A DNA stretch of 64,000 nucleotides from Escherichia coli (GTDB taxonomy: Bacteria > Pseudomonadota > Gammaproteobacteria > Enterobacterales > Enterobacteriaceae). Positions 12,300 through 50,053 of the stretch are shown here, piece by piece (the stretch's first letter is position 1; each line of letters starts with the position of its first letter). A program made the translations under genes and the position numbers. The notes under the pieces were generated by a model. That model worked only from the letters and a program-made list of their open reading frames with translations. It was not told the origin of the DNA and made no database searches. The stretch lies in the NCBI RefSeq assembly GCF_044324785.1, contig NZ_CP172127.1; one strand, 5' to 3'.

Positions 12300-12326
12300 C
12301 ATCCCCGGTTACGGGGATTTTTTTTA
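12300..12326 (+). terminator. rho-independent terminator
   Basis: TCCCCG-GTTA-CGGGGA hairpin followed by T8. Confidence 0.5.
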
Positions 12327-12896
12327 GCTGTTGTCTGGGGAGGGAAGGGGGCTGTGTCGGGCTGGGAGCTGTAAGGCTGCGATTGTCCGGGTGATGTCTG
12401 AACATGCGGTATGTTTGCGTTAAACAAGGGGGGAGTATGTGGATACTGATTTTCTGGCTTTCAACACCATATTCAGTGTCATCCAGTGTTGCCAGACAAC
12501 CAACGCTTGCTGTTCATTCTCAGGAGTTCGCTGGCTGAGATGAAGAAGGTGAATGTCGGAGAACTGACCCTGAGGGGGATCTGTGTCTCAAAAGAATAGT
12601 GGGGTAGAGGGAGCGAACCAGGCTGTTTTATCAGGATGTGATTCTGGAGAGTCCGCTCGCCGCAGTCCGGCGACCGAACGGTAGTGAGCGAGCGGACGAG
12701 GAAGCGGAACGTCACAGTTCTTTCATAATGCACCTACGCTGTGTGGTTACATGGGTAAAGGATGAATATCACCATTCTATATCTGTTTCTGAAAAACAGT
12801 TTCGCTTGTTGCCTGTCATTGCCGGCTGGCGTTAGCATACAGAGGCGGTATTATCCCCTGTGATATTACGGGTTATTTTGTTTTGCTCTGTAAGAC

Positions 12897-12924
12897 CTGG
12901 CCAGCTATTATGCTGGCCTTTTTT
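12897..12924 (+). terminator. rho-independent terminator
   Basis: GGCCAGC/GCTGGCC stem followed by T6. Confidence 0.45.
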
Positions 12925-12929
12925 GTGGT

Positions 12930-13247
12930 TTATTGTTCGCAGTCCAGCATTGCAAATAATTTTCGTTTCTGTTCCTTCACATACTCAACATCAACAGTAC
13001 AATCCAGATAACTTAACTCATCTTCTGTCCAGGCATTGATGGATTCTTTTATTCGGTGTGTCACATCCGGTGTGAGTATGTCGCGCATTTTCTCAATGGT
13101 ATCCCGGCTTATTTCTCCTCGTGGAGATTCAAGCAGAGGAATTACTGCCTGATGTCCCGGAGGGAGTATAAGACGTAATTCATATTTAAGTGTTTCGTTG
13201 AGTAAACGACAGAAAGCACTGTATTTCTCTTTCCGGGTACTGTTCAT
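12930..13247 (-). CDS. hypothetical protein (AT-rich two-gene module, distal gene)
   Basis: about 105 aa from second ATG with SD GAAGGA; no family recognised. Confidence 0.4.
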   Translation of the reverse strand: MNSTRKEKYSAFCRLLNETLKYELRLILPPGHQAVIPLLESPRGEISRDTIEKMRDILTPDVTHRIKESINAWTEDELSYLDCTVDVEYVKEQKRKLFAMLDCEQ

Positions 13248-13342
13248 CGTTTTATTCCTTCTCATTACTGTGCATGGTGTAAGATTAAAGCGTTTTGCAA
13301 AAGATGTACAAGTTGTTTTTATCCGGATTTAATATCATGGAC

Positions 13343-13996
13343 TCACTTTTCTTTTGTGTCAGTGGGTACTGCATTGTTTATTAGCCACGGCAATTGTTGA
13401 TTACCCTGTATTTTTCGGATGTAGTTATCAATAATATCTTTTGTTTCATCACTATTATTATAAAAAGATTCAAGTGTGCATATAAAATCATCATTTAATG
13501 CAGGTAGCAGGATTATGTTTTTTACTGTGAACCGGATATGACGATTACTCAGTGTTTTTAAATAAAGTTTCTTTCCAATAACAGGATTTACATTGAAAAT
13601 ATTGTAACAGATTTCCACTGTGTTTTCTGAAGGTGCGTATAATACGTATACCGGATATTTTTTATGAAGTTTTATCAGGCAATTTATAAAGTCTAAGGAA
13701 TTTGTTTGTTTTGCTTTTTCTCGCATCTTATTTACGTGTTGCGAAAAGAAATATGCTTTTGTAAATATAAAAAGAAAAATAAGCGCAGTGTTTAACAGAA
13801 ATGTGATGGCAATTGTTATAAATAACCATTTACCTGAACCTGTATTAAAGATATGGGATGAAAGATACCCACCTGTCAGCAACAAAAATATAAATAATAA
13901 TGACTGCATTTTTTCCTGGTTGTTTATTGATGATTTCAGACACAGAAATATAACAACACATGCAAAGCTCCAGAAAAATATAACAGCAAAATCCAT
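13343..13996 (-). CDS. hypothetical membrane protein (N-terminal 3 TM helices plus C-terminal soluble domain)
   Basis: about 217 aa from ATG with SD AAAGGTGA; very AT-rich codon usage unlike flanking DNA. Confidence 0.45.
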   Translation of the reverse strand: MDFAVIFFWSFACVVIFLCLKSSINNQEKMQSLLFIFLLLTGGYLSSHIFNTGSGKWLFITIAITFLLNTALIFLFIFTKAYFFSQHVNKMREKAKQTNSLDFINCLIKLHKKYPVYVLYAPSENTVEICYNIFNVNPVIGKKLYLKTLSNRHIRFTVKNIILLPALNDDFICTLESFYNNSDETKDIIDNYIRKIQGNQQLPWLINNAVPTDTKEK

Positions 13997-14160
13997 ATTA
14001 TCACCTTTTGTCTGACAGTTCATTTGTTGATGCTATCACGATATTCGCGATGCGGTAAATATATCAATATGTTGGTTTATTTGTGTAATACATTATTTCC
14101 CATATGCCATAAATCAGTCTGTTGACGATAGCTTTTTTCTTTTGTTATTCTGTTCCCGCA

Positions 14161-14470
14161 TTAACTGTCGCTTCGGCGACCACCAATGTTCCATGAGGCC
14201 TGTGAGGAACGCCTTCGGGTGGCCCATGTCGCTCCGGCGACCACCAATGTTCCATGTGGCCTGTGAGGAACGCCTTCGGGTGGCCCACGTCGCTCCGGCG
14301 ACCACCAATGCTCCATCTGACCAGTGAGGAGCGCCTTCGGGTGGTCAGTTTTACACCTCCGTAGCCTGAAAGGAGCTGTGCGTGCTGATGGGATATGTTT
14401 CCGGAAGTACGGGTAAATCTGCACACCTTTGCGAGCAGATGTCACCACGGTTTACGTGATGATGAAGGCA
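14161..14470. repeat. composite repeat copy 1: three tandem ~61-bp units (14166-14226, 14227-14287, 14288-14347) plus ~120-bp unique tail
   Basis: Directly visible; about 95 percent identical to copy at 16463-16773; each unit has GTCGC-TCCG-GCGAC hairpin and conserved GAGGAACGCCTTCGGGTGG core. Confidence 0.9.
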
Positions 14471-15074
14471 TTCCGGATTTCGTCCGGTACTTTTACTTTT
14501 TCTCAGCAGACTTTCATAAAAAATGCTTTATGGATCTGCGTCTTAACATATTTTCTGACTTTCCGCATAAGCTTCTTATGACTGTGCGCACGGCATAAGG
14601 CCATTTGAAATTTGGCCGCTTGCGTGTGTACGTGGAGTTTGAAGCAGTGCATGCGTCACTTTTGTCGGCGTTCACGCTGACAAAGTGACGCATGAACGTC
14701 GACTCAACGAACCCGCATAAACAGGCTCTTCACGGGATGTTTTTTAACATTTGAAGAAGTGACCTGACGTGATCGTTTTTTTTCAACTTCATTCTGTTTC
14801 GTAGTGACGTCTCTCCGGTAAAACTTCCGGAAAAACGTCAGTCAACAGAATATCATTGTTTTTTAAGGAGTTTAATGTAGTGAGATGCCGAATCGGCGAT
14901 ATATCTGACAGGCAGATATGTCGGGGGCGACCTTCAGAGGTACAGTTAATTCTGCGGCCGGTTAAACTAACCGGCTTGACACCCCGCAAAACCTGAACAC
15001 TTTGCGTTACCCTGACGCACAGGCACTCACTCACCGAAGGAACGTAACGAAGAACCGTGTCGTCAGGTGAAATG

Positions 15075-15123
15075 CAGATGAATTCTTCTGTTGTGTTCAC
15101 GGCACAACAGAAGAATTCATCTG
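15075..15123. promoter_or_regulatory. perfect 21-bp inverted repeat with 7-bp spacer, 52 bp upstream of recombinase start
   Basis: CAGATGAATTCTTCTGTTGTG - TTCACGG - CACAACAGAAGAATTCATCTG read directly. Confidence 0.5.
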
Positions 15124-15175
15124 TGTTGTGTGCTGCTGTTTTGTTTAGGTCATAGGTCATAAGGAGAATGTACAG

Positions 15176-16081
15176 ATGTCCAGACGTGAGAAATTGCTTA
15201 AAAAGGATCTGGTTGCTCATGTCCGAAAAGAAAAGGGGAGTTTTAAAAAGTTAAGTGACTATACAAGGATTATGCATCGATTCGCTGAAACGCTTGCTCG
15301 TCTGAATGTACAGATTAGTTCTGCTGCACAGTTAAAAGTTCGTCACATTGAATTATATATGAACAGCAGGACGGATGTATCAAAACGAACGAGAGAAAAT
15401 GAAATGTCAGCAATACGCGCGGTTTTACGTCAGGTTGGTAAGAATAAACTTGCCGATCCCAGCCATCCACGGCTGAGTAATAAAGCATTAGGTATTTCAG
15501 GTGAGAGTCGTAAAGGTACGAAAAGTCTGATTACAGACGATCGTTTTCGTGAAATTCTTCAGCGCATTGAACAAAAAGATAAAGGACTCGCTGCAACGGT
15601 TAAATTGTCGCGTTATCTTGGTCTGAGAAATGAGGAGGCCATTCAGTCCGCCAAATCGCTCAAAACATGGAAACAGGCATTAGAACGGGGAGATGAAAAA
15701 TTACGTGTTATTTTTGGTACGAAAGGCGGTCGTGAGAGAATGACCACGATTGTTGACAGAAATAATGTTATTGAGGCTGTTAATTATGCTATTAAATATG
15801 CCGGTGAGCATGACGGGCGATTAATCGACAGAGGTAATCTTAAGTCTGCAATGAATTATTATCTTAACTCATTGCGTCGTTATGGTGAAATGAAAGGCGG
15901 TGATGAGACACCACATAGTTTTCGTTACAGTTATGCCGCAAGTGCAATGAAATACCATATTATGAATGGTTACAGTTATCATGAAGCGCTTGCATTAACA
16001 TCTATGGATCTTGGTCACGGTGACGGCAGAGGACGTTATATCGAGCAGGTATATTGCCAGTTGTTAGGACATGAAGAATAG
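15176..16081 (+). CDS. tyrosine recombinase / phage-integrase-family protein
   Basis: 301 aa; SD AAGGAG; catalytic-type motifs R (LGLRNEE), HxxR (PHSFRYSYA), H...Y (LGHGDGRGRYIEQVY). Confidence 0.65.
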   Translation: MSRREKLLKKDLVAHVRKEKGSFKKLSDYTRIMHRFAETLARLNVQISSAAQLKVRHIELYMNSRTDVSKRTRENEMSAIRAVLRQVGKNKLADPSHPRLSNKALGISGESRKGTKSLITDDRFREILQRIEQKDKGLAATVKLSRYLGLRNEEAIQSAKSLKTWKQALERGDEKLRVIFGTKGGRERMTTIVDRNNVIEAVNYAIKYAGEHDGRLIDRGNLKSAMNYYLNSLRRYGEMKGGDETPHSFRYSYAASAMKYHIMNGYSYHEALALTSMDLGHGDGRGRYIEQVYCQLLGHEE

Positions 16082-16121
16082 CTGTTATTATATTGTAGCC
16101 ATTTTCTTAAAAGGGACCGTT

Positions 16122-16415
16122 ATGAGTGATTATATTTATATGACTATTACTTCTGTTAAAAGTATCACTGACAACTCTCCTTTCTGGTCTTATGATTTAG
16201 GTTATTATCTTTATTCAGGAAAACTTGTGTCTTTTTATTGTGAGGGCATGTCCAACGAATGGGATATGTGTTCTGCTATCGCGGATCATTTTGACGTTGT
16301 CGGAGATTTTTCTTTTGATGTTATTCGTAAGAAAAAAAGAACGCTGATACGTGGGAACTGCGTTTTTCTTTTTGAACAACCCTTTCCGGGAGCGTATAAA
16401 ATACCGCTTTACTGA
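16122..16415 (+). CDS. hypothetical protein co-transcribed with recombinase
   Basis: 97 aa from ATG with SD AAAGGGA; AT-rich. Confidence 0.4.
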   Translation: MSDYIYMTITSVKSITDNSPFWSYDLGYYLYSGKLVSFYCEGMSNEWDMCSAIADHFDVVGDFSFDVIRKKKRTLIRGNCVFLFEQPFPGAYKIPLY

Positions 16416-16462
16416 ATTTTTTTGTTGTTCTTCCACGTAGTTTGTGCTTACAATTTAAACGC

Positions 16463-16773
16463 TAACTTGTCGCTTCGGCGACCACCAATGTTCCATGTGG
16501 CCTGTGAGGAACGCCTTCGGGTGGCCCATGTCGCTCCGGCGACCACCAATGTTCCATGTGGCCTGTGAGGAACGCCTTCGGGTGGCCCACGTCGCTCCGG
16601 CGACCACCAATGCTTCATCTGACCTGTGAGGAGCGCCTTCGGGTGGTCAGTTTTACACCTCCTGAGCCTGAAAGGAGCTGTGCGTACTGAAGGGATATGT
16701 TTCCGGAAGTACGGGCAAATCTGCACACCTTTGAGAGCAGATGTCACTGCGGTTTTCCGTGATGATGAAGGCT
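16463..16773. repeat. composite repeat copy 2 (same orientation as copy 1)
   Basis: Same three-unit tandem structure and tail as 14161-14470. Confidence 0.9.
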
Positions 16774-16901
16774 TTTTTATCACTGTATGACCTGAGTTAT
16801 CTCTGGTCCTTAAGCACATCGTGTTATCGCATTGATGTGTTCACCTGACGGATTTTCCAGTCCGTCAGGGCGGAACGTCCGTCTTTTATCCGGAGGTTCC
16901 A

Positions 16902-17303
16902 ATGTTTATTCCACTTCTGTTTCGCGCAGAGATGCGCCTGACACCTTTCTTTCAGCGACTCAGACAACGTCTGTGTTATCCGGTGAGTCGTGTTCATACA
17001 CAACATCCCTGGTCTTCTCCACAGTTGCGGCACCTTTACTGCACGCCGTGGTTTGTTAACGCCACCGGCAATCTTGCACTCCGTGCCTGCATTGTTTCCA
17101 TTGACGGTTCTTTGCGACACTGCTTTGAGTTCCGTGAAGGCTCTCACAGCCGTGAATACCGTTTCTGGTTTGAGGCGCTTCCTTTGTCGGTACTGCGTTT
17201 TAACACTTTTACCGGTCGAATATCCGATCGCCGTACACTCTCTGCTGCCTCCCGTATGGCCGCGCAGCTTACTTCCTTTCGCTATCGCTTCGGTTTGCGC
17301 TGA
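16902..17303 (+). CDS. hypothetical protein (leading-region-like array)
   Basis: 133 aa, SD GGAGG upstream. Confidence 0.4.
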   Translation: MFIPLLFRAEMRLTPFFQRLRQRLCYPVSRVHTQHPWSSPQLRHLYCTPWFVNATGNLALRACIVSIDGSLRHCFEFREGSHSREYRFWFEALPLSVLRFNTFTGRISDRRTLSAASRMAAQLTSFRYRFGLR

Positions 17304-17455
17304 AGCTGTTTGAGGTCGTTATGACAGTCATTTTCTCTACGAGCAGCGTTGTCTGATCGCGCCATTCAGAACGCGATGACAAAGCTGATTTTTCCTTAAC
17401 CCGTCCGGGACCGCTTCCGTTCGGGGAACGGTCTCTCTGTTTCTGGAGATTGTTT

Positions 17456-17842
17456 ATGGGACTCGATATTTTTTTCCTTGGGCGTGATCGTGTTTGTGTT
17501 ACCGACGCAGTGGTATCGGTACCGGAAACGCGGGAAGTGGGGTACTTTCGCAAGGTTAACCCACTGATTGCCTGGTTTGAGAAGCATTGTGGACCGCTTG
17601 AAAATGCCGTGGAGCGTCCGGTTTCCAGAACGGAACTGGAGGCACTACTGAGCGATCTTGAATGCCTTACGCCGGAGAACTGCCGGGAATTCTTCCCCAC
17701 AACAGAAGGATTCTTTTTTGGCTCTCAGGAGTATGACCAGTATTACTGGAAGGATGTTGAGGACGTGAAGTCGTGGGTCAGAAGCACGCTTGATTCGTTT
17801 GATTTTGAACGAAAAATACTGTTGCTCTGGGCATGGTGGTAA
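17456..17842 (+). CDS. hypothetical protein (leading-region-like array)
   Basis: about 128 aa, SD GGAGA upstream. Confidence 0.4.
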   Translation: MGLDIFFLGRDRVCVTDAVVSVPETREVGYFRKVNPLIAWFEKHCGPLENAVERPVSRTELEALLSDLECLTPENCREFFPTTEGFFFGSQEYDQYYWKDVEDVKSWVRSTLDSFDFERKILLLWAWW

Positions 17843-17928
17843 CTATTTCTCAGTCCTTGTTTTTAACCATGTGATTATTCGCAGAAGCCCGACTTCTCTG
17901 GCCTGCTTTTATTCCGGAGAATGAGATT

Positions 17929-18177
17929 ATGCAAATAAGTGCAGAAACTCGCGCTGTTTTACGTCACTACAGACAGATCATTAACGCCAGACGGCGTGAA
18001 GATGGCATGAAAGCTCTCAGCACGCCGCAAATCGTTGATGAGATCTGTGAGTTTATGCTCAGCCAGCCAGCAGTGTATCTGGGGGGGGCAGTTCATCATG
18101 CAGAAGGCCAGAACAAGATAGCTGTCTTTGTTCATGGCTTTTCAACAGACCGTTATGCTTTCGCCACCACATGGTAA
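17929..18177 (+). CDS. hypothetical small protein
   Basis: 82 aa with SD GGAGAA. Confidence 0.35.
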   Translation: MQISAETRAVLRHYRQIINARRREDGMKALSTPQIVDEICEFMLSQPAVYLGGAVHHAEGQNKIAVFVHGFSTDRYAFATTW

Positions 18178-18261
18178 GGCGGGTCTGATTTTACTGTTAA
18201 CCGTACGGTTCACTCTCATACCGTACGGTGGGAGTGAACCCTTTTCATTAAGGACACTCTC

Positions 18262-18771
18262 ATGAAAACGAAAACTTCTGCACCTGCTGTATATGTTGGT
18301 ACCTGGGCTAAATACAACAATGGCAGCATAGAAGGATGCTGGTTTAATGATTTAACCGTTTTTGAAACTGAAAGCGATTTTTTATCTGCGGCCCGTAAGT
18401 TTCATCAGGATGAAAAAGATCCTGAATTTATGTACCAGGATTATGAAAACTTTCCTTCGGGAATGGCTTCAGAATATGGTTTCAACTGGGCTTATGTTGA
18501 AGGTTATCGTCTTGCCCGTGAAGAAGGCTGTGAAGATGCATGGTATGCATGGGTTTCTAATACCGGTGATACCTGTTTCGAACAGTTCAGGGAGGCGTGG
18601 CTTGGTGGTCCTTATGACAGTGAACTCGAGTTCGCCGCGCAGTACGTGGATGAATGCGGTTTTCTGTCAGAGGTACCTGATACTGTTGCACGCTATTTTG
18701 ATTATGAGGCTTTTGCGCGCGATTTGTTCATGGAACTGGATTTTGTCGACGGACACGTTTTCCATCGGTAA
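18262..18771 (+). CDS. ardA: antirestriction protein ArdA (DNA-mimic inhibitor of type I restriction)
   Basis: 169 aa, very acidic; N-terminal AVYVGTWAKYNNGSIEGCWF and C-terminal YFDYEAFARDL motifs match ArdA family as recalled (e.g. Tn916 Orf18, ColIb ArdA). Confidence 0.8.
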   Translation: MKTKTSAPAVYVGTWAKYNNGSIEGCWFNDLTVFETESDFLSAARKFHQDEKDPEFMYQDYENFPSGMASEYGFNWAYVEGYRLAREEGCEDAWYAWVSNTGDTCFEQFREAWLGGPYDSELEFAAQYVDECGFLSEVPDTVARYFDYEAFARDLFMELDFVDGHVFHR

Positions 18772-21366: not shown

Positions 21367-21412
21367 ATAAATCAGTGATGGCAGAGTTGTTATTGTAAAT
21401 AACTCTCCGTGT

Positions 21413-24328
21413 TTACTGAGTCAGTTTTTTTATCAGGTCGTGAATTTTATCACCTGAAAACTGGGTCATGAAAGTTATCTTTATGGATTTACTGATTTGT
21501 TCGAAGAGTTTCTGTGCATGTTTTATTTTATCGCGTTCTTCATGTCTGAGTTCACGTTTGCCATCAACATTTTTGGTTTCAATAATAAGGTTCAGATAAT
21601 CACCCTTTGACGTGTTTACAACATAAGCGAAGTCAGGGGAGTAAGTGTATCCTCCCGCTACAGGAATTTTTATTGAATTTTTGGGGATCTTTGTGAAGAC
21701 AATGACTGACCTGACCTCACCCTCTGTCATATTGAGTTTTTCAAGTTCTGAATCATAAAATACTTCTTCAAAAAGATAAGAGTCCAGTGGAGGGCTTGTA
21801 TTATCCTGTAAAACGCCAAGATCACTTGACAATACATCAGCAAGATAACCGCCGTCTGCATTGGTGAATTTCGTGGGATGGACAGTTCCTGATATTACAT
21901 TATACCCAAGGCTGAATTTACTGAACGAGTTATTAAGCAAATACTTGCTGAAACCAGATTTAATTTTTCTGATTGTCTGAATGTTAAGGTATTCAGTTAT
22001 ATTTATGATGTCTTTTATATCACAAAAAACCTTATGCATGGTGTCATGTTTGACAAAAATAGTCTGTGATAATTTATCAAGGAATTCACGATAGCTCATT
22101 GTGTTTATTTTGTGAAAATTATCCTCATCAACACTGAGAATGCTTTTCGACATTGCCGTATCATTATGGATATAAATTCTTTCAATACGAGTATGAGCAC
22201 CGGATTTGGTAAATCTGTCTGCTTCTTCCAGCATAAACGCTCTGAAAAGGGATAAAAACTCACGTTCACTTTTTATTTTATACTCAATCACGACCTTTTG
22301 ATTGATCAAGTCCCATAGTTCTTTCAGCTCACTGAACTTACCAACACGCATTTTAGTGCGTCTTTTTCCATCAGAGGCTTTTTTTATTTTGCCTGGTTTC
22401 ACTCCTGCAGGAAATGCTGCCGGATATCTGGCTTTTAAGCGGCTATAGGCATCTGAATCTTTGAAGTTATCATTATCATCAATGATCTCATCACCAAAAA
22501 TTTCATTCAAGAGTGTTCTGGAGGAAAGCTCCGGATATTGAGACAGGATTTTATCCTTAAGCTCCTGAGTAAACTTACCTGGAACAGTCTCTTTGAAAGA
22601 ACTATCGTTGATCTCTTTGACAAGAGAATCGACAAAATCTTTTTCTGTAAAATCAACATAATAGTTGAGGGTAAAATTGCGGTCTTTCACACGACACATG
22701 TATTCATTCACCGGAAGACGTAAACCACGCCCTACTTCCTGAAGTTTAGATGTGGTGCTACCGCTCGAACGGAGCTTACAAATCTGAAAGACATTTGGGT
22801 TATCCCATCCCTCACGCAACGTCCATTTAGAGAAAATGAAACGGCGAGGATTTTCTAAAGACAATAGAAGCTCTTTATCATGAAGGATTTCGTTGATTTC
22901 CTGCTCAATTTTATCATCTTTATCACTATTATCTTTTGAAAAATAACCACCATGAACAGAAGATATATCCTTAACAGTTTTTTCAAGGTAGTTTCTGTAA
23001 AACTCATCTTTTTCTGTTTTTAACAGTTCATTTGCTTCTGCCAAAACGTATTCTTCGAACTTAGTTTTCAGGCTTCCTGCAATATCATTACCATCACGAT
23101 AGCCTTCAATGTCATCAATGAAGAAAAGAGTAAGAGGTTTTATGCGTGGCCTTTGTGTCAGATACTCTTTTTCTAACTTAAAGTGTTCTTTGACAGCTTT
23201 ACGTATCATGTTATCAGCAAGTGTCTGATCGTAAGAATAGGGGTTTATCGAACTACCAATTTTTAGCTCAATACCATTACTCAACACTGCTGTATTCTTA
23301 TTTAAAGCATCAAGAGTTAAATCATGGATCGCACTATGCGTCTTAGATAGTGATTCACCTTTGGCTAACTTAAAAATTTTTTTATTATTATTTTCGTTCA
23401 GTTCAAATGTAGCTTCTTTTCCGTCAGATTTGACCAACTTGAGGTTGGCATTACCATCACCAACTATATCCTCAATGTATGCATCAATACCTTTAACAAG
23501 ATCTTCATTGAAGGCATCTACGGCTGTAAGACGATAAACTAAGTTCTTATAGCCTTCACTAAAGGTTGCACCATAGCGGATGATATATTGGGCATTAAAT
23601 TTTTGAATATGTTCCCATGTCTTTTTACCAGTAGGAAATTTATGAGGCTCATCAATGATAATGAATGGTTTTATCGCACTAAGTGCAGAAAATGGGGTAT
23701 CAAACTGATTATTAAGCAAGCCAACATCATAAGTGTCAGTTAAAGACTTAGAGTTAATCATCCCTGAATTGATCACAAGAATGTGTATATATTTCTTATT
23801 GAAATTACTTGCTTCAACAAAATCATGGATAGCTTGAGGTATATACGATTTTGTATTTTTACCCGAACGTTTCTGACTTTCAACAACGTAAGTCTTTAGT
23901 TCACGCTCGTAATCATCTCGAAAGTGTTCTTTTATAGCATCGCTTTTTAAAAAGTTAACGGTTCCGGCTTTGATCGATAGGGTAGGAACAATGATGATAA
24001 ACTTGTTAATACCAAATGATTTGTTCAGGTCAAAAATTGTTTTGGTGTAAGTATAAGTTTTACCTGTACCTGTCTCCATAGAAACATCAATTACGTTGCT
24101 TTTAGCATCGTAATTATCTTTTGAGTGCTCAATACCATTGAACTCCTGAACATTTTTTATGTTGTTGTAGTATTGTTGTTCAGATAGATTCAGTTCTGGA
24201 TTAGCTAACAGGCGAATTGCAACATGATCCGTCTGATGAGGTATGGCGGATACAAAGACATTCATTACCGAATCAACGCCAGCCTTTTGATGAGGTAAAT
24301 TTTTTTCGAATGTGAACCCTTTAGACAT
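21413..24328 (-). CDS. res: Type III restriction endonuclease, Res subunit
   Basis: 971 aa; helicase motifs METGTGKTYT and IIIDEPH; C-terminal PD-(D/E)xK-like region; size typical of EcoP15I-like Res; AT-rich. Confidence 0.85.
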   Translation of the reverse strand: MSKGFTFEKNLPHQKAGVDSVMNVFVSAIPHQTDHVAIRLLANPELNLSEQQYYNNIKNVQEFNGIEHSKDNYDAKSNVIDVSMETGTGKTYTYTKTIFDLNKSFGINKFIIIVPTLSIKAGTVNFLKSDAIKEHFRDDYERELKTYVVESQKRSGKNTKSYIPQAIHDFVEASNFNKKYIHILVINSGMINSKSLTDTYDVGLLNNQFDTPFSALSAIKPFIIIDEPHKFPTGKKTWEHIQKFNAQYIIRYGATFSEGYKNLVYRLTAVDAFNEDLVKGIDAYIEDIVGDGNANLKLVKSDGKEATFELNENNNKKIFKLAKGESLSKTHSAIHDLTLDALNKNTAVLSNGIELKIGSSINPYSYDQTLADNMIRKAVKEHFKLEKEYLTQRPRIKPLTLFFIDDIEGYRDGNDIAGSLKTKFEEYVLAEANELLKTEKDEFYRNYLEKTVKDISSVHGGYFSKDNSDKDDKIEQEINEILHDKELLLSLENPRRFIFSKWTLREGWDNPNVFQICKLRSSGSTTSKLQEVGRGLRLPVNEYMCRVKDRNFTLNYYVDFTEKDFVDSLVKEINDSSFKETVPGKFTQELKDKILSQYPELSSRTLLNEIFGDEIIDDNDNFKDSDAYSRLKARYPAAFPAGVKPGKIKKASDGKRRTKMRVGKFSELKELWDLINQKVVIEYKIKSEREFLSLFRAFMLEEADRFTKSGAHTRIERIYIHNDTAMSKSILSVDEDNFHKINTMSYREFLDKLSQTIFVKHDTMHKVFCDIKDIINITEYLNIQTIRKIKSGFSKYLLNNSFSKFSLGYNVISGTVHPTKFTNADGGYLADVLSSDLGVLQDNTSPPLDSYLFEEVFYDSELEKLNMTEGEVRSVIVFTKIPKNSIKIPVAGGYTYSPDFAYVVNTSKGDYLNLIIETKNVDGKRELRHEERDKIKHAQKLFEQISKSIKITFMTQFSGDKIHDLIKKLTQ

Positions 24329-24330
24329 GA

Positions 24331-26367
24331 TTAGTTCCTTACCACCAAATCTAAATCAATAGATTTTTTATTAGCATAACTTTTTAGTGCTTCATTGAGT
24401 TCCATCTGTTTCGCACTTTCGAAGTTGCTGCCATAAAATACAACTTTGTTAGGGGCAAAGTCTTTGTCTGCATCCAGCTTTTGAAGTAAAGCTTTCAAAG
24501 CCTCACTTGTGAAATTAGGCGCAATTAGATATAGCCGACCATCGCACAAGTGTGCTTTGTAGCCATTAAGGTCAATATCTTCAATTGGTGTTGTTAGCAA
24601 GCTGCCATCATACACGCACCATGTCGTCAATAGAGTGTCATACTGCTCTGGTGTCAATACAGCATCGTCAAAGAAACTAAGATTAGAAAGCGTAAGTTCA
24701 GACTCATCTTTCACTCGAAAATCATGAACTGTTTCAAATATTTTAAATCCCAAATCTCCATTATAATTAGGATTATCTTTTTTCAGCTTTTTTCCTGCCT
24801 TAATAATTCTGTCTTTTGTTATATTGAAGATGGATTTATACCCTTCTTTATAGGCTTGTTTCTTTTTATCTGTTTCTTCATCTAATTGAACACAGATGAA
24901 GTTTCTTTTCCTGCCGTCTTCAATATTTAACTCCAGAATACCATGAGCTGTAGTTCCAGAGCCAGCAAAAAAGTCAAGATAAATGTCTTTATCTTCGGTT
25001 TTTACTGAACCAAATAGTGTTTTTATTAAACTTGTTGGCTTCGGGTAGGAGAAATATCCTTTCCCACCAAAAAGATTTTCAACCTCAACACCACCATCAC
25101 TTTTAGTTGAAATAATTGATCTTAGTAAAAACTCTTCAACTTCATCTAAAAATTTAACCGAACTGGGTTGGGTGTTTTCTGTACTGGCAAACCAAATTCC
25201 ACCACAAATAACGCTACCATCATGTAGTTTTTTGATATCTGCATACTTTCCATCTATTCTTTTTGCAATATGATTAAAAGTGCCTTCTTTCCAACGCCAG
25301 CCTCTGTCTGGGATTTTGACAGGGTTATTAGTCAAAGGGTGCAATACTTCATACGTGGGTCCAAATGAATCTGCATTAGGCCAGCTCATATTAATTTTAC
25401 CCCATGGCCTATAATCTTCGTTCAAACAGTTGTAAAGAGTAATTCCACGATCATATCCGTTGGAGCTGTAGAATTTTTTGAGTTGCTGCTCTGCTTTATC
25501 TAATGGCACCTTCTCCTTTTTTAACTTTTCAATAAACTGATATACATCATCAATACCATCTTTCCGCATTAAAAATTCTTTACTTATTTCGTTATTCTTC
25601 GCATAAGCAAGGATGTACTCATGGATATTACCAATACCCTTATCATTTTTAGGGATACGTTTATTCCATACAATATTTTCTATGAAATTTGCTTCGCCAA
25701 AAATTTCATCACAAATAGTTTTAAGTTGATTTAATTCATTTTCGTCAATCGAAATAAATATCACACCATCTTCACGTAGAAGCTCACGAGCAATATATAA
25801 ACGAGGATAAATGAACGTTAACCATGCGCTATGGCTGCTTGAACCATTCGTGGTAAATTCAAGTATACGTTTAGCCTCATCAAGATCGATACCTGCCAGA
25901 TCAGAAAGCTGTTCAGGTGTAAACTTGCGATCATCGTTATAGGCGAATCCATCCTTACCTGTATTGTATGGTGGATCAATGTAAATCATCTTCACCTTTT
26001 CAGAGTAAGCATTAACCATATGCTTCAATACTTCGAGGTTATCCCCTTTGATTAACAGATTCTGACTGTTTTTGTTCTCTTCACGTTGGTTATGGTCTTT
26101 ATCTTCGGAGAGTAATGTCTTCGGCGGCAAGTTAGCTAACAGACGGGCATAGGATTTACCAAGCCAGTTCAGGCTGTATGATTCTTTGGAGAGTTCAACA
26201 TCCGATGATTTGACGATTTCAAGCAATTTTTCCTGAATGAACGCTCCATTTTTATCAAAACACTGTGGAAAGTTAGCCTTTAAAATCGCAAGCTGTTTAC
26301 TGTTTGTGGTTTCAGTTTCAGAGAAAAGAGTTTCTTTTTTCAGTTGAAATTGGGGTTGTGTATTCAT
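24331..26367 (-). CDS. mod: Type III DNA methyltransferase, Mod subunit (N6-adenine, beta-class)
   Basis: 678 aa; motif IV IYIDPPYN precedes motif I FFAGSGTT; own SD GGAGG 6 nt before ATG; immediately upstream of res. Confidence 0.85.
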   Translation of the reverse strand: MNTQPQFQLKKETLFSETETTNSKQLAILKANFPQCFDKNGAFIQEKLLEIVKSSDVELSKESYSLNWLGKSYARLLANLPPKTLLSEDKDHNQREENKNSQNLLIKGDNLEVLKHMVNAYSEKVKMIYIDPPYNTGKDGFAYNDDRKFTPEQLSDLAGIDLDEAKRILEFTTNGSSSHSAWLTFIYPRLYIARELLREDGVIFISIDENELNQLKTICDEIFGEANFIENIVWNKRIPKNDKGIGNIHEYILAYAKNNEISKEFLMRKDGIDDVYQFIEKLKKEKVPLDKAEQQLKKFYSSNGYDRGITLYNCLNEDYRPWGKINMSWPNADSFGPTYEVLHPLTNNPVKIPDRGWRWKEGTFNHIAKRIDGKYADIKKLHDGSVICGGIWFASTENTQPSSVKFLDEVEEFLLRSIISTKSDGGVEVENLFGGKGYFSYPKPTSLIKTLFGSVKTEDKDIYLDFFAGSGTTAHGILELNIEDGRKRNFICVQLDEETDKKKQAYKEGYKSIFNITKDRIIKAGKKLKKDNPNYNGDLGFKIFETVHDFRVKDESELTLSNLSFFDDAVLTPEQYDTLLTTWCVYDGSLLTTPIEDIDLNGYKAHLCDGRLYLIAPNFTSEALKALLQKLDADKDFAPNKVVFYGSNFESAKQMELNEALKSYANKKSIDLDLVVRN

Positions 26368-26581
26368 AACGCACCTCCAGAATGCACGGAGGTACTTGAC
26401 GCGGAATTTTTATACAGGCATATTGTTGCGTTGCGTTGCGTTGCGTTGCGTTGCGTTGCGTTGCGTTGCGTTGCGTTGCGTTGCGTTGCGTTGCGTTGCG
26501 TTGCGTTGCGTTGCGTTGCGTTGCGTTGCGTTGCGTTGCGTTGCGTTGCGTTGCGTTGCGTTGCGTTGCGTTGCGTTTCAT
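26318..26581 (-). CDS. leader ORF containing the pentanucleotide tract; encodes (RNATQ)x10; overlaps mod start by 49 nt in current frame
   Basis: ATG at 26581 with SD GAGG; ORF reads through repeat and ends at 26318 inside mod. Confidence 0.4.
   Translation of the reverse strand: MKRNATQRNATQRNATQRNATQRNATQRNATQRNATQRNATQRNATQRNATQQYACIKIPRQVPPCILEVRYEYTTPISTEKRNSFL
26426..26575. repeat. pentanucleotide simple-sequence repeat (TTGCG)x30 on + strand (CGCAA on mod strand)
   Basis: 30 perfect tandem units counted directly. Confidence 0.95.
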
Positions 26582-44697: not shown

Positions 44698-44749
44698 ATT
44701 ATGGTCCTGTATCGCACATTTTTTGTGTTTCCTGAGCCTGTATCCGGTT

Positions 44750-44968
44750 TTATTCCGGCTGAACTCTGCTGCATGAGAATGCGGTGACGTTCACTTTCAC
44801 ACTGAACGATTTACCGGCCTCTTTTTCTTTTGAAAACAGCCTGACGCATTCAGGCTCAGTCATCGGTGTGTTCTGAAAACGCACCCAGGATACCGGTGCA
44901 CCACCAGGCTTCAGGATGGTGGCTTCAATCCGGTATTTATGCGGTGTGGTGTCTGTTGTTGCTGTCAT
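44750..44968 (-). CDS. small hypothetical protein at head of pil operon
   Basis: 72 aa ORF. Confidence 0.3.
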   Translation of the reverse strand: MTATTDTTPHKYRIEATILKPGGAPVSWVRFQNTPMTEPECVRLFSKEKEAGKSFSVKVNVTAFSCSRVQPE

Positions 44969-45494
44969 TCATGGCTCCTGTTGCCGGTTTCCGGTCCCGG
45001 AAAAACAGGCGACATCAGCAACAAGGGGAAAAACGCGATGTCGCCTGAAAGGTACTGGTGCAGCGGTGCGTTGTACGGACGCAGGTCCGCACAACCGGAA
45101 ATACACGGGATGATTCGGTCAGTGTATTTTCGTGTTGTGCGCCTGTACTGATACGGCAGGGTGTGATGAGTGTTACCTGTGGCTGCAGGCGCGGCACGTC
45201 ACTCATAACGTAGCATTCTGTTTCCTCCTCAGCCCGGCTTCAGGGCGTTGCCGCAATACCCGATTGTTAAAGAGCCTTACCGGCATGGTGTCCGGTGTCA
45301 CCGCGCGGATAACGATACGGCGGTGTCTGAAGGGATGATGCTGCGGCGCTCTGCACATGGCGACGATTAATTCTTTTTGTGTTTCTGAAAATTTATTGCC
45401 GGGAAATTTCTGGTGTGACAGGGTGAATTAATTCTGGTCAGCGACGCTCCTGAGAAGGCAGAGTGCGCTGACATTTCGTGAACGGAGGAATGCC

Positions 45495-47003
45495 ATGTCC
45501 CTGAATCCCACCGATGAACAGTCAGCCATCATTCACTGGCAGGGGGAAAAACTGGTGGTGAATGCCTTTGCCGGTACAGGCAAAACCAGCACACTGGTGC
45601 AGTTCGCCGCAGCCTGCCCTGAGAGCCGGATGCTGTATCTGGCCTATAACCGCGCGATTCGTGATGAGGCGGAGCGCCGGTTTCCCTTTAATGTGGAGTG
45701 CAAAACCTCCCATCAGCTGGCGTATTCGCGGTTCGGAAAGCATTTCCGGCATCGTCTGGTGCCGGGGCTGTCAGTGACGGATGTAGCGAGAAAACTGAAC
45801 ACCCGCTACTGGACGCTTGCCCGTGTTGCCATGACCGCGCTGAATCAGTTCATCTGTTCGGCGGACGTGGCGCCCGGAATGCAGCATATGCCGCCTCCCG
45901 ACGAGATGAAGGGCATGTCGCCACAGGATGCGCTGCGTGCCGTGCAGATCCTCTGGCATGAAATGAGCAATCCGGATGGCAATTTTCCGGTCACTCACGA
46001 CACCTATCTGAAGCTCTATCAGCTTTCCTCACCGGATCTGTCACGCAGGTGGGATACGATCCTTTTTGATGAGGCCCAGGATGCGAATCCGGTGACGTCC
46101 GCACTGGTGCTGGGGCAGCGGTGCAGGGTGGTACTGGTTGGCGACCGTTACCAGCAGATTTATCGTTTTCGTGGTGCCAGCAATGCACTGTCGCATCCGG
46201 CACTGAACGGGGCGGACCGTCTCTGGCTGACGCAAAGTTTTCGTTTTGGTCCTGCCGTGGCCGGGGTGGCCAGCCAGTTACTGAAGCGTGCCGGCGAGAG
46301 CCGTGAGGTGACCGGCAGGGGCGGGGATGATGAAGTGCTGACGGCAGGTGAAATGCGTGCGCGCGTGAAGGCAGGGAAGATGACCGGTCACAGGGCGATA
46401 CTGAGCCGGACGGTGGCCGGTGTGATTGGCACCGCACTGATGGCGGCAATGCGTGGCAGGAAGGTTTACTGGGTGGGGGGCATTGAAGGCTACAGAACGG
46501 AGGCACTGGAAGATCTTTACTGGTTTCAGATGGATATGCCGGAGCGGATGCACAGTGACAGACTGCGGAAGGACTACCGGGGTTTTGACGAGTACCGTCA
46601 TATTGCGAAGGTGACGAAGGATGTGGAAATGAATCAGTCCATTCGTCTGCTGGAGCTGTGCTTTCCGCTGCCGAAGAAACTCGAACTTCTCAGAAAGCAC
46701 ACCGTCACGAATGAACAGGAGGCGGATATCACGGTCTCAACGGCACACCGCAGTAAGGGACTGGAGTGGTCACTGGTGGTACTCGATGATGATTTTCAGG
46801 ATATCACCGACCCGCTGATAAGCGAGCAGGAGCGGCGGGATGAAACCAATCTGCTCTATGTGGCGGTCACCCGGGCGCGCAGAACGCTGGTTCTCAATGA
46901 ACTCATGCAGCAGCTGACGGAAGCTGCCGGCGATGGTGGTGCACCCGGAAACGCGCCGGTGCAGGGGAAGGAAGACGATGGTGTGGAGGGAGAGGATGTT
47001 TAA
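45495..47003 (+). CDS. UvrD/PcrA-like superfamily I DNA helicase
   Basis: 502 aa; Walker A FAGTGKT, Walker B ILFDEAQD; SD GGAGGA. Confidence 0.75.
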   Translation: MSLNPTDEQSAIIHWQGEKLVVNAFAGTGKTSTLVQFAAACPESRMLYLAYNRAIRDEAERRFPFNVECKTSHQLAYSRFGKHFRHRLVPGLSVTDVARKLNTRYWTLARVAMTALNQFICSADVAPGMQHMPPPDEMKGMSPQDALRAVQILWHEMSNPDGNFPVTHDTYLKLYQLSSPDLSRRWDTILFDEAQDANPVTSALVLGQRCRVVLVGDRYQQIYRFRGASNALSHPALNGADRLWLTQSFRFGPAVAGVASQLLKRAGESREVTGRGGDDEVLTAGEMRARVKAGKMTGHRAILSRTVAGVIGTALMAAMRGRKVYWVGGIEGYRTEALEDLYWFQMDMPERMHSDRLRKDYRGFDEYRHIAKVTKDVEMNQSIRLLELCFPLPKKLELLRKHTVTNEQEADITVSTAHRSKGLEWSLVVLDDDFQDITDPLISEQERRDETNLLYVAVTRARRTLVLNELMQQLTEAAGDGGAPGNAPVQGKEDDGVEGEDV

Positions 47004-48525
47004 GCGGTTCAGACGTATGCTGCCCGGCACAAAGGGCACGGAGCCTGGCGTGGTCGCGCCGGTGATACCGGCAGGGTTTTATGCGCCGCTCACGGCAGAG
47101 GCACTGTTATCACCAGAGCACAGGGAGCTGAGGCTCAGGCAGGTCTGGGATAACAATCCGATGCCCCGTGATGTATACGACAGGATGTGCCTTGAACCAC
47201 TCAGCCGGCTGCTGCTGAACACCCAGAACGTCCCGGCAACACGGGAAGGACGGTGGTCCCGTGCCGGTGGATTTGGTGATCTGACGGTACTGTACACCAC
47301 GTATGCCGTTCGTCTGGCAAGAGGGTACATGTTTCCACCGGATGCGACCCCGGAAGACCAGGCGGCTCAGGCCGCAGTCTGGCATGCGGTGATTTTCTGG
47401 TCAGCGCTGTTTTACCACCTGCCCCTGCTGGCGCACCTTGAGGGGGAACTGCTGAGTGGGCGGGGCTGGCAGCCAGGAATTTCTGTGCCTGACGAACCTT
47501 TCCGTTTCCGGTTCAGGAAGACGGCGCCGCAGGGTACGGAAGCGCAACAACTTGCGGCCCTGACTGCCGGCACGCTGTTACCGGACGGCGCAACGGCCTG
47601 GCTTGTGACGGCGCCGGGCGCACTGCAGAATCTGGCCGGGGCGCTCTGGCATCAGCATCCCGGGATGGCGCTGATTCGTGATGTGCTGCAGGAAGCGGCA
47701 AGGCAGACAGAGAGTCCGCTGAATACCTGCGCTGTCACTGCGCCGGTTACTGCGGAGGCTTCAGCAGACATTCGTCCTGCTGACCCGGTGGTGACCGGCA
47801 GCACGGACAGTGTGGTGGCAGTCACTGAGGTGCAGCCGGCAGAGGAGGTGAAGACTGAGAGCGTGCAGACAGAGACTGAAGGTGGTGGTGAGTCCGCCGG
47901 GGCGTCAGAGGTGCCGTCCGCACAGCAGGAACTGACGGTTCAGACAGCGCCAGTGGTGACGGCAGATGATGAAGCGGTCAGTGCTGCTCCTGCGGATCAG
48001 GACACAGCAATGCTGCTGAGTCTTTTTTCAGCAGATGAGTCCGAAACTGCTGAACCTGAAAACAGTATTAAATCGTCAGCCGATCGGGACGGCCAAAGTG
48101 ACGTACCGGCAGTACAGGGAGAACAAACCAGCGTTATTTATCCGGAGGGCGAAGCAGATACGGAAGAGGTGGATTTTATTACTTGGCTGAAATCGGGGTT
48201 GTCATCGGGGATGATTGAAATAAATACACCTTCCGCGAGAGTGCATTGTATTGCGGGGTATGTTTTTTTGTGTGTCCCGGATATTTTTTATCTGTATCAG
48301 AAAATGACGGGAAGCCGTCGTGACCGCAGGAGTGTTCAGGCGTTGTTTGAACGTTCCCGTATTCACAAAATCCGGGAAGGTGAGCGTTTTTTCAGCCTGC
48401 ATCTGTATAGTGTACCTGACAGAACAGGGAGTTATAAAGCTGTAAGCGGATATCTGGTTAAAAGCCGTTATCTGTGTGGTTATAACGCAGTGCCCGGGGA
48501 CAGTGAATACATTGCTTTTCCATAA
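46996..48525 (+). CDS. hypothetical protein with acidic low-complexity linker (helicase-associated)
   Basis: about 509 aa from ATG at 46996 with SD; overlaps helicase stop by 8 nt. Confidence 0.45.
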   Translation: MFKRFRRMLPGTKGTEPGVVAPVIPAGFYAPLTAEALLSPEHRELRLRQVWDNNPMPRDVYDRMCLEPLSRLLLNTQNVPATREGRWSRAGGFGDLTVLYTTYAVRLARGYMFPPDATPEDQAAQAAVWHAVIFWSALFYHLPLLAHLEGELLSGRGWQPGISVPDEPFRFRFRKTAPQGTEAQQLAALTAGTLLPDGATAWLVTAPGALQNLAGALWHQHPGMALIRDVLQEAARQTESPLNTCAVTAPVTAEASADIRPADPVVTGSTDSVVAVTEVQPAEEVKTESVQTETEGGGESAGASEVPSAQQELTVQTAPVVTADDEAVSAAPADQDTAMLLSLFSADESETAEPENSIKSSADRDGQSDVPAVQGEQTSVIYPEGEADTEEVDFITWLKSGLSSGMIEINTPSARVHCIAGYVFLCVPDIFYLYQKMTGSRRDRRSVQALFERSRIHKIREGERFFSLHLYSVPDRTGSYKAVSGYLVKSRYLCGYNAVPGDSEYIAFP

Positions 48526-48555
48526 CAGCACCGGGTCATTCATCCGTTCAGGGAG

Positions 48556-49668
48556 ATGTATTCCCCTATGAAGAAAGATGTCGAAAAAATAACGTGGGAG
48601 GAATTACTCTTTGAGTACTTCCTTGAGAAAAATCTTAAACCTGATACTGAACACAGCTACCGCAAAGTTGTCCGTCTGTTTGATAAGTTCCTGGGCGGTG
48701 ATTCCTGGCCCGGCGATGTCACACCGAGAGACATTCAGCGATGGCGACGTCATATGCTTAAAGATCAGGGGCGTTCAGTAAACACCTGGAATAACAGAGT
48801 GTCACATCTCCGACCGCTCCTGGCGCTTGGGATCAAGAAAAAGTGGTTACCACAGACGGAAAATCCGCTTGATGGCACTTCAGTGCCCGGGGCATCAAAA
48901 CAGAAAAAAACGCTCACTGATAAAGAGATGGTCAGGATTTACCGTACAGTTCAGGCTTTTGCTGAAGCTGAGGCCAATAAGATGGTGATCTGTGACAGGC
49001 GGCGCAATGCGATGTACCCTGCATGGTACTGGCTGATCGTGCTGGATACGCTGCGCTTCACGGGGATGCGTTTTAACCAGCTGAAACATATCAGGCTGAA
49101 GGATATTCATGAGGATGAGGCGGTGATTACCCTTCAGCTGGAAGGGAGTAAAACCCGACGTGAATGGCGTGTGCCGATTGTGGAATCGTTACGACTTTCA
49201 CTGAAACATCTTATTGAGTGCGCCCGTGTCAATGGTGCGTCGGATAATGACTATCTCTTTGATGTCTGCCTGTACAGCGAGCATTACAGTCCCGGGAAAT
49301 ACCAGTACTGTGCCAAAAGAGCGCATCAGTCGGTCAAATCTTTTTTCCGCAGACTGAGCCGTGAATGTGGTTTTTTTGTCTCGTCACACAGATTCAGACA
49401 CACACTGGCAACAAAGCTGATGGCGGCACCGGAGCGTAATCTGCACATGGTCAAATCCATTCTGGGGCACAGGAGTGTTGCCACCACCATGGAGTATATT
49501 GATTTTTCGGTGGAAGTTGCTGCTGAGGCACTGGAGGCTGAACTCGGTTTATCCACGGATGAGGCGACAAAAAGACGGATTAAAGAGGCGAAAAAACGCC
49601 GTGAGGCCAGTACCGGGAAAAAGGAAAAACAGGAAAGTTCTGGAGGGGAACTTTCTGACAAGGAATAA
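48556..49668 (+). CDS. int: tyrosine integrase of the island (alternative start at 48568)
   Basis: 370 aa; HxxR (SHRFRHT) and C-terminal GHRSVATTMEYIDF catalytic-Tyr region; adjacent to tRNA-Phe. Confidence 0.8.
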   Translation: MYSPMKKDVEKITWEELLFEYFLEKNLKPDTEHSYRKVVRLFDKFLGGDSWPGDVTPRDIQRWRRHMLKDQGRSVNTWNNRVSHLRPLLALGIKKKWLPQTENPLDGTSVPGASKQKKTLTDKEMVRIYRTVQAFAEAEANKMVICDRRRNAMYPAWYWLIVLDTLRFTGMRFNQLKHIRLKDIHEDEAVITLQLEGSKTRREWRVPIVESLRLSLKHLIECARVNGASDNDYLFDVCLYSEHYSPGKYQYCAKRAHQSVKSFFRRLSRECGFFVSSHRFRHTLATKLMAAPERNLHMVKSILGHRSVATTMEYIDFSVEVAAEALEAELGLSTDEATKRRIKEAKKRREASTGKKEKQESSGGELSDKE

Positions 49669-49872
49669 ACATGCTTGACATCGGACCAGAATGGTGTAAG
49701 CATTTTTGCGTATGCGAGAGCGTGACACCTGTTACCAGCAGGTGCCACGCTTGAGGATACGATACTGAAACCACAGTGTAACCAGACTTACACGGAGATT
49801 TCGTTATGACCGGATCCTGTATTAGACGCCCGTTAAGGATCTCATCCCTTAACCAGCGTACTTTGATGCGTT

Positions 49873-49948
49873 TGGTGCCCGGAGGCGGAATCGAACCACC
49901 GACACGGGGATTTTCAATCCCCTGCTCTACCGACTGAGCTATCCGGGC
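49873..49948 (-). tRNA. pheV: tRNA-Phe (anticodon GAA), variant T-stem
   Basis: 76 nt ending CCA; matches E. coli tRNA-Phe as recalled except T-stem GGTGG/CCGCC instead of CTTGG/CCGAG (compensatory). Confidence 0.9.
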
Positions 49949-50053
49949 AACGGGGCGCATTAAACCTGATTCGCCTCGTCTCGTCAATCAAATTTCTTCA
50001 ATTTAGTGCAGACTGCACAATCTATCATCACTTTGCCGCTATTGCACACATTG

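Follow-up and report, generated by a model that had tools for sequence, protein, structure and literature searches.

Two overlapping genes beside the integrase of a mobile island in Escherichia coli, one encoding a UvrD-like helicase and the other (traI) a relaxase-family protein, most plausibly form the DNA-processing (relaxosome) module of an integrating conjugative element (ICE) of the SPI-7 family, a reading that we hold with a probability of about 0.75. The genes lie in a 64,000-nt stretch of contig NZ_CP172127.1 (assembly GCF_044324785.1), which is referred to here in its full length as the window and whose features are compiled in Table 1. An earlier note on this DNA, made from the letters alone, had placed two genes with an 8-nt overlap between a pil operon and int, and both open reading frames (ORFs), together with the exact overlap, were confirmed by our analysis. 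The suggestion in that note of a processing module for island transfer or maintenance also gained support, both from the domains of the proteins and from the residence of the genes in a complete SPI-7-family ICE inserted at the tRNA gene pheV.

The gene pair and its element

The assignment of the element to the SPI-7 family was based on the presence of a tRNA-Phe gene, pil genes with a shufflon, parA/dnaB-PI/parB/topB/ssb, a GI-type type IV secretion system, and a tRNA-proximal traI-int arrangement, all of which were found. The island abuts the 3' end of the tRNA-Phe gene, and the presence of yqgA and speC beyond the tRNA identifies the site as pheV. From ~18.5 kb to 50 kb, the window is collinear with strain GF60 at ~99.8% identity, and the region 44700-49950 displays 99.6-100% identity to eight complete E. 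coli genomes, mostly of avian isolates. The near-identical element of GF60 extends over ~87 kb from parA to tRNA-Phe and carries the SPI-7-type DnaB helicase (dnaB-PI), ParB, topoisomerase III, Ssb, the type IV coupling protein (T4CP) TraD, and a VirB4-like ATPase; its names in the Prokaryotic Genome Annotation Pipeline (PGAP) include "SPI-7-type island replicative DNA helicase," "STY4528 family," and "STY4534 family" (replication proteins). The TIGR037xx gene set (TIGR03745 to TIGR03759 families) is present in the island along with traD and a conjugative ATPase, as are pilL to pilV and rci, which constitute a type IVb pil operon with a shufflon. Upstream of the gene pair, this operon (TcpQ-like, PilM, PilN, PilO2, PilP, and onwards) runs on the minus strand up to 44697, and the pair then lies beyond the DUF1187 gene and a 526-bp gap.

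At the overlap, the sequence reads ...GAGGATGTTTAAGCGG..., with the ATG of traI at 46996 and the TAA of the helicase gene at 47001-47003. The longest ORF of traI begins at 46933, and the ATG at 46996 is the start used by PGAP; in RefSeq, the identical DNA of other E. coli genomes is annotated by PGAP with the same two coding sequences and the same starts. The integrase gene begins ~40 nt after traI and is probably part of the same operon.

Profile comparison places TraI in the MOBH superfamily, among the relaxase-family proteins of ICEs. TraI passed the profile TIGR03760 ("integrating conjugative element relaxase, PFGI-1 class") with 193 bits against a cutoff of 161.4, and Pfam assigned PF07514 (TraI_2) to its N-terminal part, with a match that spans only positions 4-216 of the 324-position model, and PF07515 (TraI_2_C, DUF1528) to its C-terminal part, with 58 bits against a cutoff of 27.3. 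These domain assignments substantiate the earlier description of a conserved-looking C-terminal domain and of a possibly relaxase-related protein, the label "relaxase" being one that TraI carries by homology only. AlphaFold modeling with 61 family sequences predicted an N-terminal domain (residues 21-245; predicted local distance difference test score, pLDDT, ~97), a disordered middle (residues 253-386; pLDDT <50), and a confidently modeled C-terminal domain (residues 391-509), which superposes on PDB 2IPQ at 1.7 Å with 37% identity. Such an order of TraI_2, disordered middle, and TraI_2_C has already been described for MOBH (PMC6736028), which means that the long acidic linker and the C-terminal domain are family traits rather than oddities of this protein. 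Both the helicase and TraI have hundreds to thousands of homologues; for TraI, an all-against-all search of 1.84 billion representatives yielded 492 family clusters, 61 of which were aligned.

The low-complexity segment that had been noted in TraI is real, but with 147 aa (residues 246-392) it is longer than the ~120 aa originally estimated. It consists of A (16%), E (14%), V (13%), S (11%), T (10%), and D (8%), these six residues making up 72% of its length, and it has a net charge of -28 and no tandem repeat. Within this otherwise unconserved acidic linker, a short linear motif (DQDTAMLLSLFSA) stands out, with the consensus D-D-T-x-x-L-L-S-L-F-G/S; AlphaFold predicts a short helix at this position, and the motif is recognizable in most related loci and in all 36 representatives of the motif-less clade, so called for the catalytic residues described below. 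Its core, DDTxxLLSLF, resembles the beta-clamp-binding motif, QL[SD]LF. The occurrence of the linker motif did not correlate with helicase adjacency, as it was also found in TraI proteins encoded at five loci without a helicase within 6 kb.

The helicase prediction in the earlier note was borne out by matches to the Pfam domains UvrD-helicase, UvrD_C, UvrD_C_2, and AAA_19, all above their cutoffs. Motifs I to VI can be read directly in the sequence as AGTGKT, FDEAQD, GDRYQQIYRFRGA, QSFRFG, TAHRSKGLEW, and VAVTRAR, and alignment to FBH1 revealed that motifs Q, I, Ia, and II to VI are intact. The protein is accordingly classed by its motifs as an intact UvrD/PcrA/FBH1-like DNA helicase of superfamily 1A (SF1A), and it presumably translocates and unwinds in the 3' to 5' direction, as judged from family membership only. 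Scores of 31-44 bits, against cutoffs of 419-1168, spoke against orthology to UvrD, Rep, PcrA, helicase IV, HelD, or RecB. The helicase domain of human FBH1 (PDB 9xzj; residues 370-873), in contrast, matched residues 5-480 of the helicase end to end (E = 1.9e-57), an E-value approximately 50 orders of magnitude below those of UvrD, Rep, or PcrA (~1e-5), and by this measure the protein belongs to a distinct SF1A subfamily whose closest solved relative is FBH1. Compared with FBH1 of humans and fission yeast, the ICE helicase lacks the F-box and occurs in a bacterial, ICE-borne context. The phage helicase family phrog_1967 also matched the protein at 5e-90. Nothing relevant was found in the literature on a bacterial or ICE origin of FBH1-like helicases or on a link between FBH1 and mobile elements.

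The arrangement recurs in other genera. A scan of one genome per species, with 25 closer sequences as the query, yielded 80 Enterobacterales loci with TraI relatives. A UvrD-like helicase was located immediately upstream in approximately 34 loci, in genera including Pantoea, Erwinia, Klebsiella, Edwardsiella, Pectobacterium, Brenneria, Serratia, Citrobacter, Cedecea, and Morganella, with the helicases being 57-67% identical and the TraI proteins only 30-40%. An XerC-like int follows traI almost everywhere in the related loci, and in an HD-bearing relative from Pasteurella, traI and int overlap by 32 nt. The ATG of traI overlaps the helicase stop codon by 7-11 nt (ATGYTGA, ATGTTAA, ATGTTCAGTAA) in 22 of the 36 loci with an upstream helicase, and in the remaining loci the two genes are separated by 7-150 nt (mostly 59-150) or by insertions. 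The overlap is a conserved feature of one sub-lineage. Translational coupling of the helicase and TraI, as the earlier note had proposed, is suggested by the overlapping codons, and the case for it is strengthened because overlaps of this kind recur in other genera; such conservation offers the strongest support for co-translation that can be had without an experiment. The loci of Xenorhabdus all lack an adjacent helicase and encode a short TraI of ~290-340 aa that comprises the N-terminal domain only, with no TraI_2_C and no linker motif; several copies of this short TraI occur in each genome, still followed by an XerC-like integrase.

Substitution rates were estimated against an E. coli lineage that is ~71% identical. 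The ratio of nonsynonymous to synonymous substitution rates (dN/dS) was 0.10 for the helicase core, 0.15 for the N-terminal domain of TraI, 0.15 for its C-terminal domain, and 0.12 for Int; in the TraI linker, dN reached 0.73 and dS was saturated. The folded parts of the helicase and of TraI are under purifying selection. The possibility that the pair represents pseudogenes or a remnant was ruled out by the two intact ORFs, the dN/dS values of 0.10-0.15, and the completeness of the ICE.

In the mechanism that we propose, the N-terminal HD-fold domain of TraI would act at the transfer origin (oriT), where TraI itself would nick the DNA, and the acidic disordered tether of ~150 aa would join this domain to the winged-helix domain, which may bind either the coupling protein or DNA (oriT). 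The helicase that MOBH relaxases themselves lack would come from the upstream gene. After excision and nicking, the helicase would unwind the circular ICE, free the transferred strand, and support rolling-circle replacement synthesis, in a role analogous to that of host PcrA/UvrD with NicK in ICEBs1 (PMC3542172). The overlapping stop and start codons could allow a single transcript, continuing into int, to yield both proteins at a constant ratio. We infer both the operon structure through helicase, traI, and int and the role of the helicase. Related elements provide some background for this scheme: traI of ICEclc is required for replication of the excised form (PMC6561031), many ICEs have been reported to carry discrete PcrA-like helicases, and ICEBs1 can make use of UvrD (PMC3542172). 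In a table of PMC3864950, traI and int are grouped as the "integration" module of ICEHin1056, ICESb1, and PAPI-1; the same table, citing Seth-Smith 2012 and Carter 2010, attaches a conjugation-phenotype symbol to these genes of ICESb1 and PAPI-1, an indication that is second-hand.

Lost catalytic residues and alternative explanations

A number of observations weigh against the relaxosome reading, foremost among them the fate of the catalytic residues of TraI. The alignment of the 61 sequences splits cleanly into 25 longer, HD-bearing proteins of 537-736 aa, such as the "MobH family relaxases" of Xanthomonas, Pseudomonas, and Pasteurella, and 36 shorter, motif-less ones of 476-590 aa, namely, TraI and 35 relatives. 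The HD-bearing proteins share the segments PASE(S/N)HHH..GG(M/L)LDH.LE, ALLHD(I/V)GK, and (K/Q)AD(Q/R), which contain the ligands of the alternative-3H and HD motifs. In TraI, every metal-ligand position of these MOBH relatives is substituted: HHH (85-87) is replaced by G85-R86-W87, H96 by L96, E99 by L99, HD (140-141) by Y140-H141, K143 by P143, and D235 by A235. The columns of the alternative 3H motif read H/H/H in 24-25 of the 25 HD-bearing proteins and G/x/aromatic in the 36 motif-less ones; the HD phosphohydrolase motif (H...HD...D) is likewise absent from TraI, with D95 as the only one of these ligands retained. Only Q77, D95, and E120 are common to both clades, where they are invariant or nearly so, and the widely conserved Tyr of "PYRFR" corresponds to Phe169 in TraI. 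The same residues are lost in the TraI proteins of S. Typhi, Y. pestis, Pectobacterium, and Edwardsiella and in an STY4665-type sequence of Citrobacter. Cleavage in vitro by TraI of the gonococcal genetic island (GGI) requires both its HD and its alternative-3H motif (PMC6736028). Within the family, MOBH1 and MOBH2 carry the alternative 3H motif (HHH), and site-specific cutting of single-stranded oriT DNA with Mn2+ or Co2+ is among the family's defining traits (Garcillán-Barcia 2009; Heilers 2019). GGI TraI is the only MOBH relaxase to have been characterized biochemically, and no catalytic mechanism is known for the motif-less clade (PMC6736028; PMC12857230).

Other points add to this. TraI failed the NCBIfam equivalog NF041494 ("MobH family relaxase") with 74.5 bits against a cutoff of 200, the match covering profile positions 3-218 of 340, that is, the first two thirds only. 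The motif-less proteins pass TIGR03760 but score 74-121 bits on the MobH equivalog, compared with 309-363 bits for their HD-bearing relatives, and owing to this failure PGAP names them only "TraI domain-containing protein." Full-length TraI relatives without an adjacent helicase exist in other clades, and no adjacent UvrD-like helicase was present at a Xanthomonas locus (in the ~0.5 kb of upstream sequence there) or at a Pasteurella locus. An oriT was not identified by conservation, Rfam, or repeat searches, and the searchable literature yielded no experimental work on this helicase. AlphaFold2 modeling of a helicase-(GGGGS)8-TraI fusion gave a predicted template modeling score (pTM) of 0.47 and a pLDDT of ~34 at the linker motif; this lends no support to docking of the motif on the helicase, although the test is a weak one based on a shallow alignment of 14 paired sequences.

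The loss of all HD and alternative-3H ligand positions and of the conserved Tyr speaks for the main alternative, which we consider unlikely. It holds that TraI of this Enterobacterales clade has lost nuclease activity and serves as an adaptor that binds oriT and couples to the T4CP through its winged helix and linker motif; the nick would then be introduced by another enzyme of the ICE (the adjacent tyrosine recombinase, as TcpM on pCW3, a topoisomerase, or an endonuclease), and the co-translated helicase would load there. In line with this proposal, the C-terminal domain of TraI is similar to TcpK, which binds oriT as the partner of a tyrosine-recombinase-type relaxase; traI lies next to int or overlaps it across the family; and TraI_2_C is passed on together with int as a single exchangeable unit. 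The last point emerges from a mosaic junction inside the linker. Up to 48055, the sequence shares 99.7% identity with AR_0089, the more common E. coli allele, and past this position the rest of the linker and the C-terminal part of TraI are strongly diverged from that allele (overall TraI identity 76%), with Int at 47% amino acid identity. The block to the right of the junction resembles a third lineage (G6/7; dN 0.14) and occurs in only 8 of 5426 complete E. coli genomes, and the GC content falls from ~0.6 to 0.45 at the junction. The traI gene of the window is a recombinant: one E. coli lineage contributed the N-terminal domain together with half of the linker, and another contributed the remainder along with int; the joint switch of alleles at 48055 indicates that TraI_2_C and int move as one block.

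A second alternative concerns the helicase rather than TraI, and we regard it as highly improbable. Here the helicase would be no conjugation factor but a cargo or maintenance protein, either an FBH1/Srs2/UvrD-type anti-recombinase that removes RecA from the single-stranded DNA of the ICE or a GajB-like defense protein, and its place upstream of traI would be coincidental. Its closest solved relative, FBH1, is a Rad51-displacing helicase; PADLOC GajB models match at 1e-19, many TraI relatives function without an adjacent helicase, and the ICE already has a DnaB-type helicase. Against these considerations stand the start/stop overlap with traI in the 22 of 36 loci, from at least eight genera, and the better conservation of the helicase relative to TraI. 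Assignment to the Gabija defense system was rejected, since the GajB models match no more than generic SF1 motif stretches and the neighboring genes, DUF1187 and traI, do not include the OLD-family nuclease GajA.

Upstream region and other features of the element

The intergenic region that separates the DUF1187 and pil genes from the divergently oriented helicase-traI-int genes presumably holds promoters and is a candidate for an oriT or a regulatory region. It occurs in 54 of 5426 E. coli genomes; its plus strand contains no sigma-70 consensus, and Rfam gave no match in it. In comparison with the ~71%-identical lineage, the arms of both inverted repeats are kept, while the loop of the first has a 6-nt indel and that of the second is diverged; the second repeat was not found upstream of the helicase in other genera. 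The near-invariant block that follows may be an operator, an oriT, or a leader. An exact 22-mer of this block occurs only in E. coli lineages, and nhmmer found nothing resembling the block in other genera. Searches with blastn, nhmmer, and patterns upstream of the helicase in other genera revealed no counterpart of the repeats or the block, and the traI-int and int-tRNA spacers contained only weak repeats.

Table 1. Features of the helicase-traI region (window positions)
Feature	Position	Strand	Remarks
DUF1187 gene	44750-44968	-	divergent from helicase-traI-int
Intergenic region	44969-45494		526 bp between divergent DUF1187/pil and helicase-traI-int; no long ORF annotated
Inverted repeat CAGGCGACATC / GATGTCGCCTG	45006-45047		perfect 11-nt arms, 20-nt loop
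Inverted repeat CGCACAACCGGAAA / TTTCGTGTTGTGCG	45088-45141		14-nt arms, 86% complementary
Near-invariant non-coding block, ~117 nt	45166-45282		from alignment with lineage otherwise ~71% identical
SF1 UvrD-like helicase gene	45495-47003	+	502 aa, intact ORF
traI	46996-48525	+	509 aa from ATG 46996, intact ORF
Helicase/traI overlap ATGTTTAA	46996-47003	+	8 nt; traI start codon within helicase gene end
TraI N-terminal domain	47056-47730	+	residues 21-245; HD-superfamily fold, metal-ligand positions substituted
TraI acidic disordered linker	47731-48171	+	residues 246-392; from composition, charge, pLDDT <50
Linker short linear motif DQDTAMLLSLFSA	47995-48033	+	TraI residues 334-346
Mosaic junction inside linker	48055		TraI residue ~353; identity breaks abruptly
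TraI_2_C winged-helix domain	48172-48522	+	residues 393-509
XerC/D-like tyrosine integrase gene (int) of the ICE	48568-49668	+	PF00589; PGAP annotation
tRNA-Phe (pheV), ICE attachment site	49873-49948	-	ARAGORN, Rfam

Several observations were made on the remainder of the element. In the avian pathogenic E. coli strain E19035, an identical helicase-traI-int-attR module is located at pheU, next to dicD and dsbD, and in the window it is located at pheV; its occurrence at both sites shows that the element uses both tRNA-Phe genes. Between an rci-like recombinase gene and pilV, shufflon-type inverted repeats (GTGCCAATCCGGTNTGTGG) were found at 33313-34089, and within 33313-34596 two segments are inverted or rearranged relative to GF60, which suggests that the shufflon is active. 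The stretch at ~21400-26400 has a low GC content (~35%) and corresponds to a type III restriction-modification pair (res, mod) annotated in GF60; this cargo of the ICE has a different compositional origin. The left third of the window (1-18466) is not collinear with GF60 but is composed of blocks that are 94-99% identical and shifted, with indels, so that a variable cargo region differs between otherwise near-identical ICEs. In GF60, an IS21-family element, ISSso4, splits ardA, and this insertion is absent from the window. A second, P4-type integrase with a leoA-containing island lies directly to the left of the parA end in GF60 (positions 10089-11282 of our locus L089, outside the window), suggesting a tandem array of islands at pheV in that strain.

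Relation to known systems and significance

The closest known counterparts of the window protein are the TraI proteins of the SPI-7 family, STY4665, Sb0117 of ICESb1, and ECA0613 of HAI2 ("MOBH3" of Heilers 2019; C-terminal domain in PDB 2IPQ), which display the same three-part architecture and the same loss of the HHH and HD residues. The placing is also the same: each follows a UvrD-like helicase, precedes an XerC-like int, and lies where the ICE, which has a type IVb pil operon, borders a tRNA-Phe gene. These STY4665-type proteins are, however, only 30-53% identical to TraI of the window, the gene of which is itself recombinant. TraI of the GGI of Neisseria gonorrhoeae (MOBH2; PMC6736028) likewise has a TraI_2 HD fold, a disordered middle, and TraI_2_C, without a helicase domain in the relaxase, and it is monomeric and elongated (PMC6736028). 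It differs in possessing an N-terminal amphipathic helix, an N-terminal domain of 300-400 aa compared with ~245 aa in the window protein, and the alternative-3H and HD motifs, the metal-binding D162/D267, and Y212, which are needed for Mn2+-dependent oriT cleavage and have no equivalents in TraI of the window. The HD-bearing relaxases of the ICEHin1056/ICEclc/PAPI-1 type share with it TIGR03760, Q77, D95, E120, PPGAxPE(E/D)Q, TraI_2_C, and traI-int adjacency, but they comprise 590-740 aa, keep all HD and 3H residues, and pass NF041494.

With respect to the helicase, the nearest functional parallel would be NicK of ICEBs1 with PcrA/UvrD and HelP, which follows the same logic in that the relaxase needs an SF1 helicase for transfer and rolling-circle replication. 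In the relaxase-helicase fusions F TraI and R388 TrwC, the helicase is a domain of the relaxase polypeptide, whereas the helicase of the window is a separate protein joined to the relaxase-family protein by gene overlap. The helicase domain of F TraI and TrwC is a RecD-like SF1B motor that moves in the 5' to 3' direction. The relaxase families also differ (MOBT for NicK, MOBF for F TraI and TrwC), and the helicase of the window is encoded by the element. The module, the family, and the architecture are already known; the specific E. coli element is uncharacterized.

ICEs of the SPI-7 family disseminate cargo genes for virulence and fitness through the Enterobacterales, such as those for the Vi capsule on SPI-7 of S. 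Typhi and those for coronafacic acid on HAI2 of Pectobacterium; the E. coli element, as represented in GF60, carries iha as a cargo gene. Naming the DNA-processing genes shows what to delete or inhibit in order to act against transfer. Moreover, the table of lost and kept residues, the conserved coupling to a helicase, and the linker motif make the mechanism of the MOBH3-type "relaxase" testable by mutants. We tentatively advance, as a doubtful but consequential idea, that the motif-less TraI, which is under strong purifying selection, initiates transfer either through a remodeled active site (Q77, D95, E120) or as a non-nuclease adaptor that, by means of its winged-helix domain and with the linker motif as a docking site, recruits the co-translated FBH1-like helicase and another nicking enzyme. 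If this were true, a remodeled-site or adaptor TraI would represent a form of conjugative DNA processing unlike that of every characterized relaxase family.

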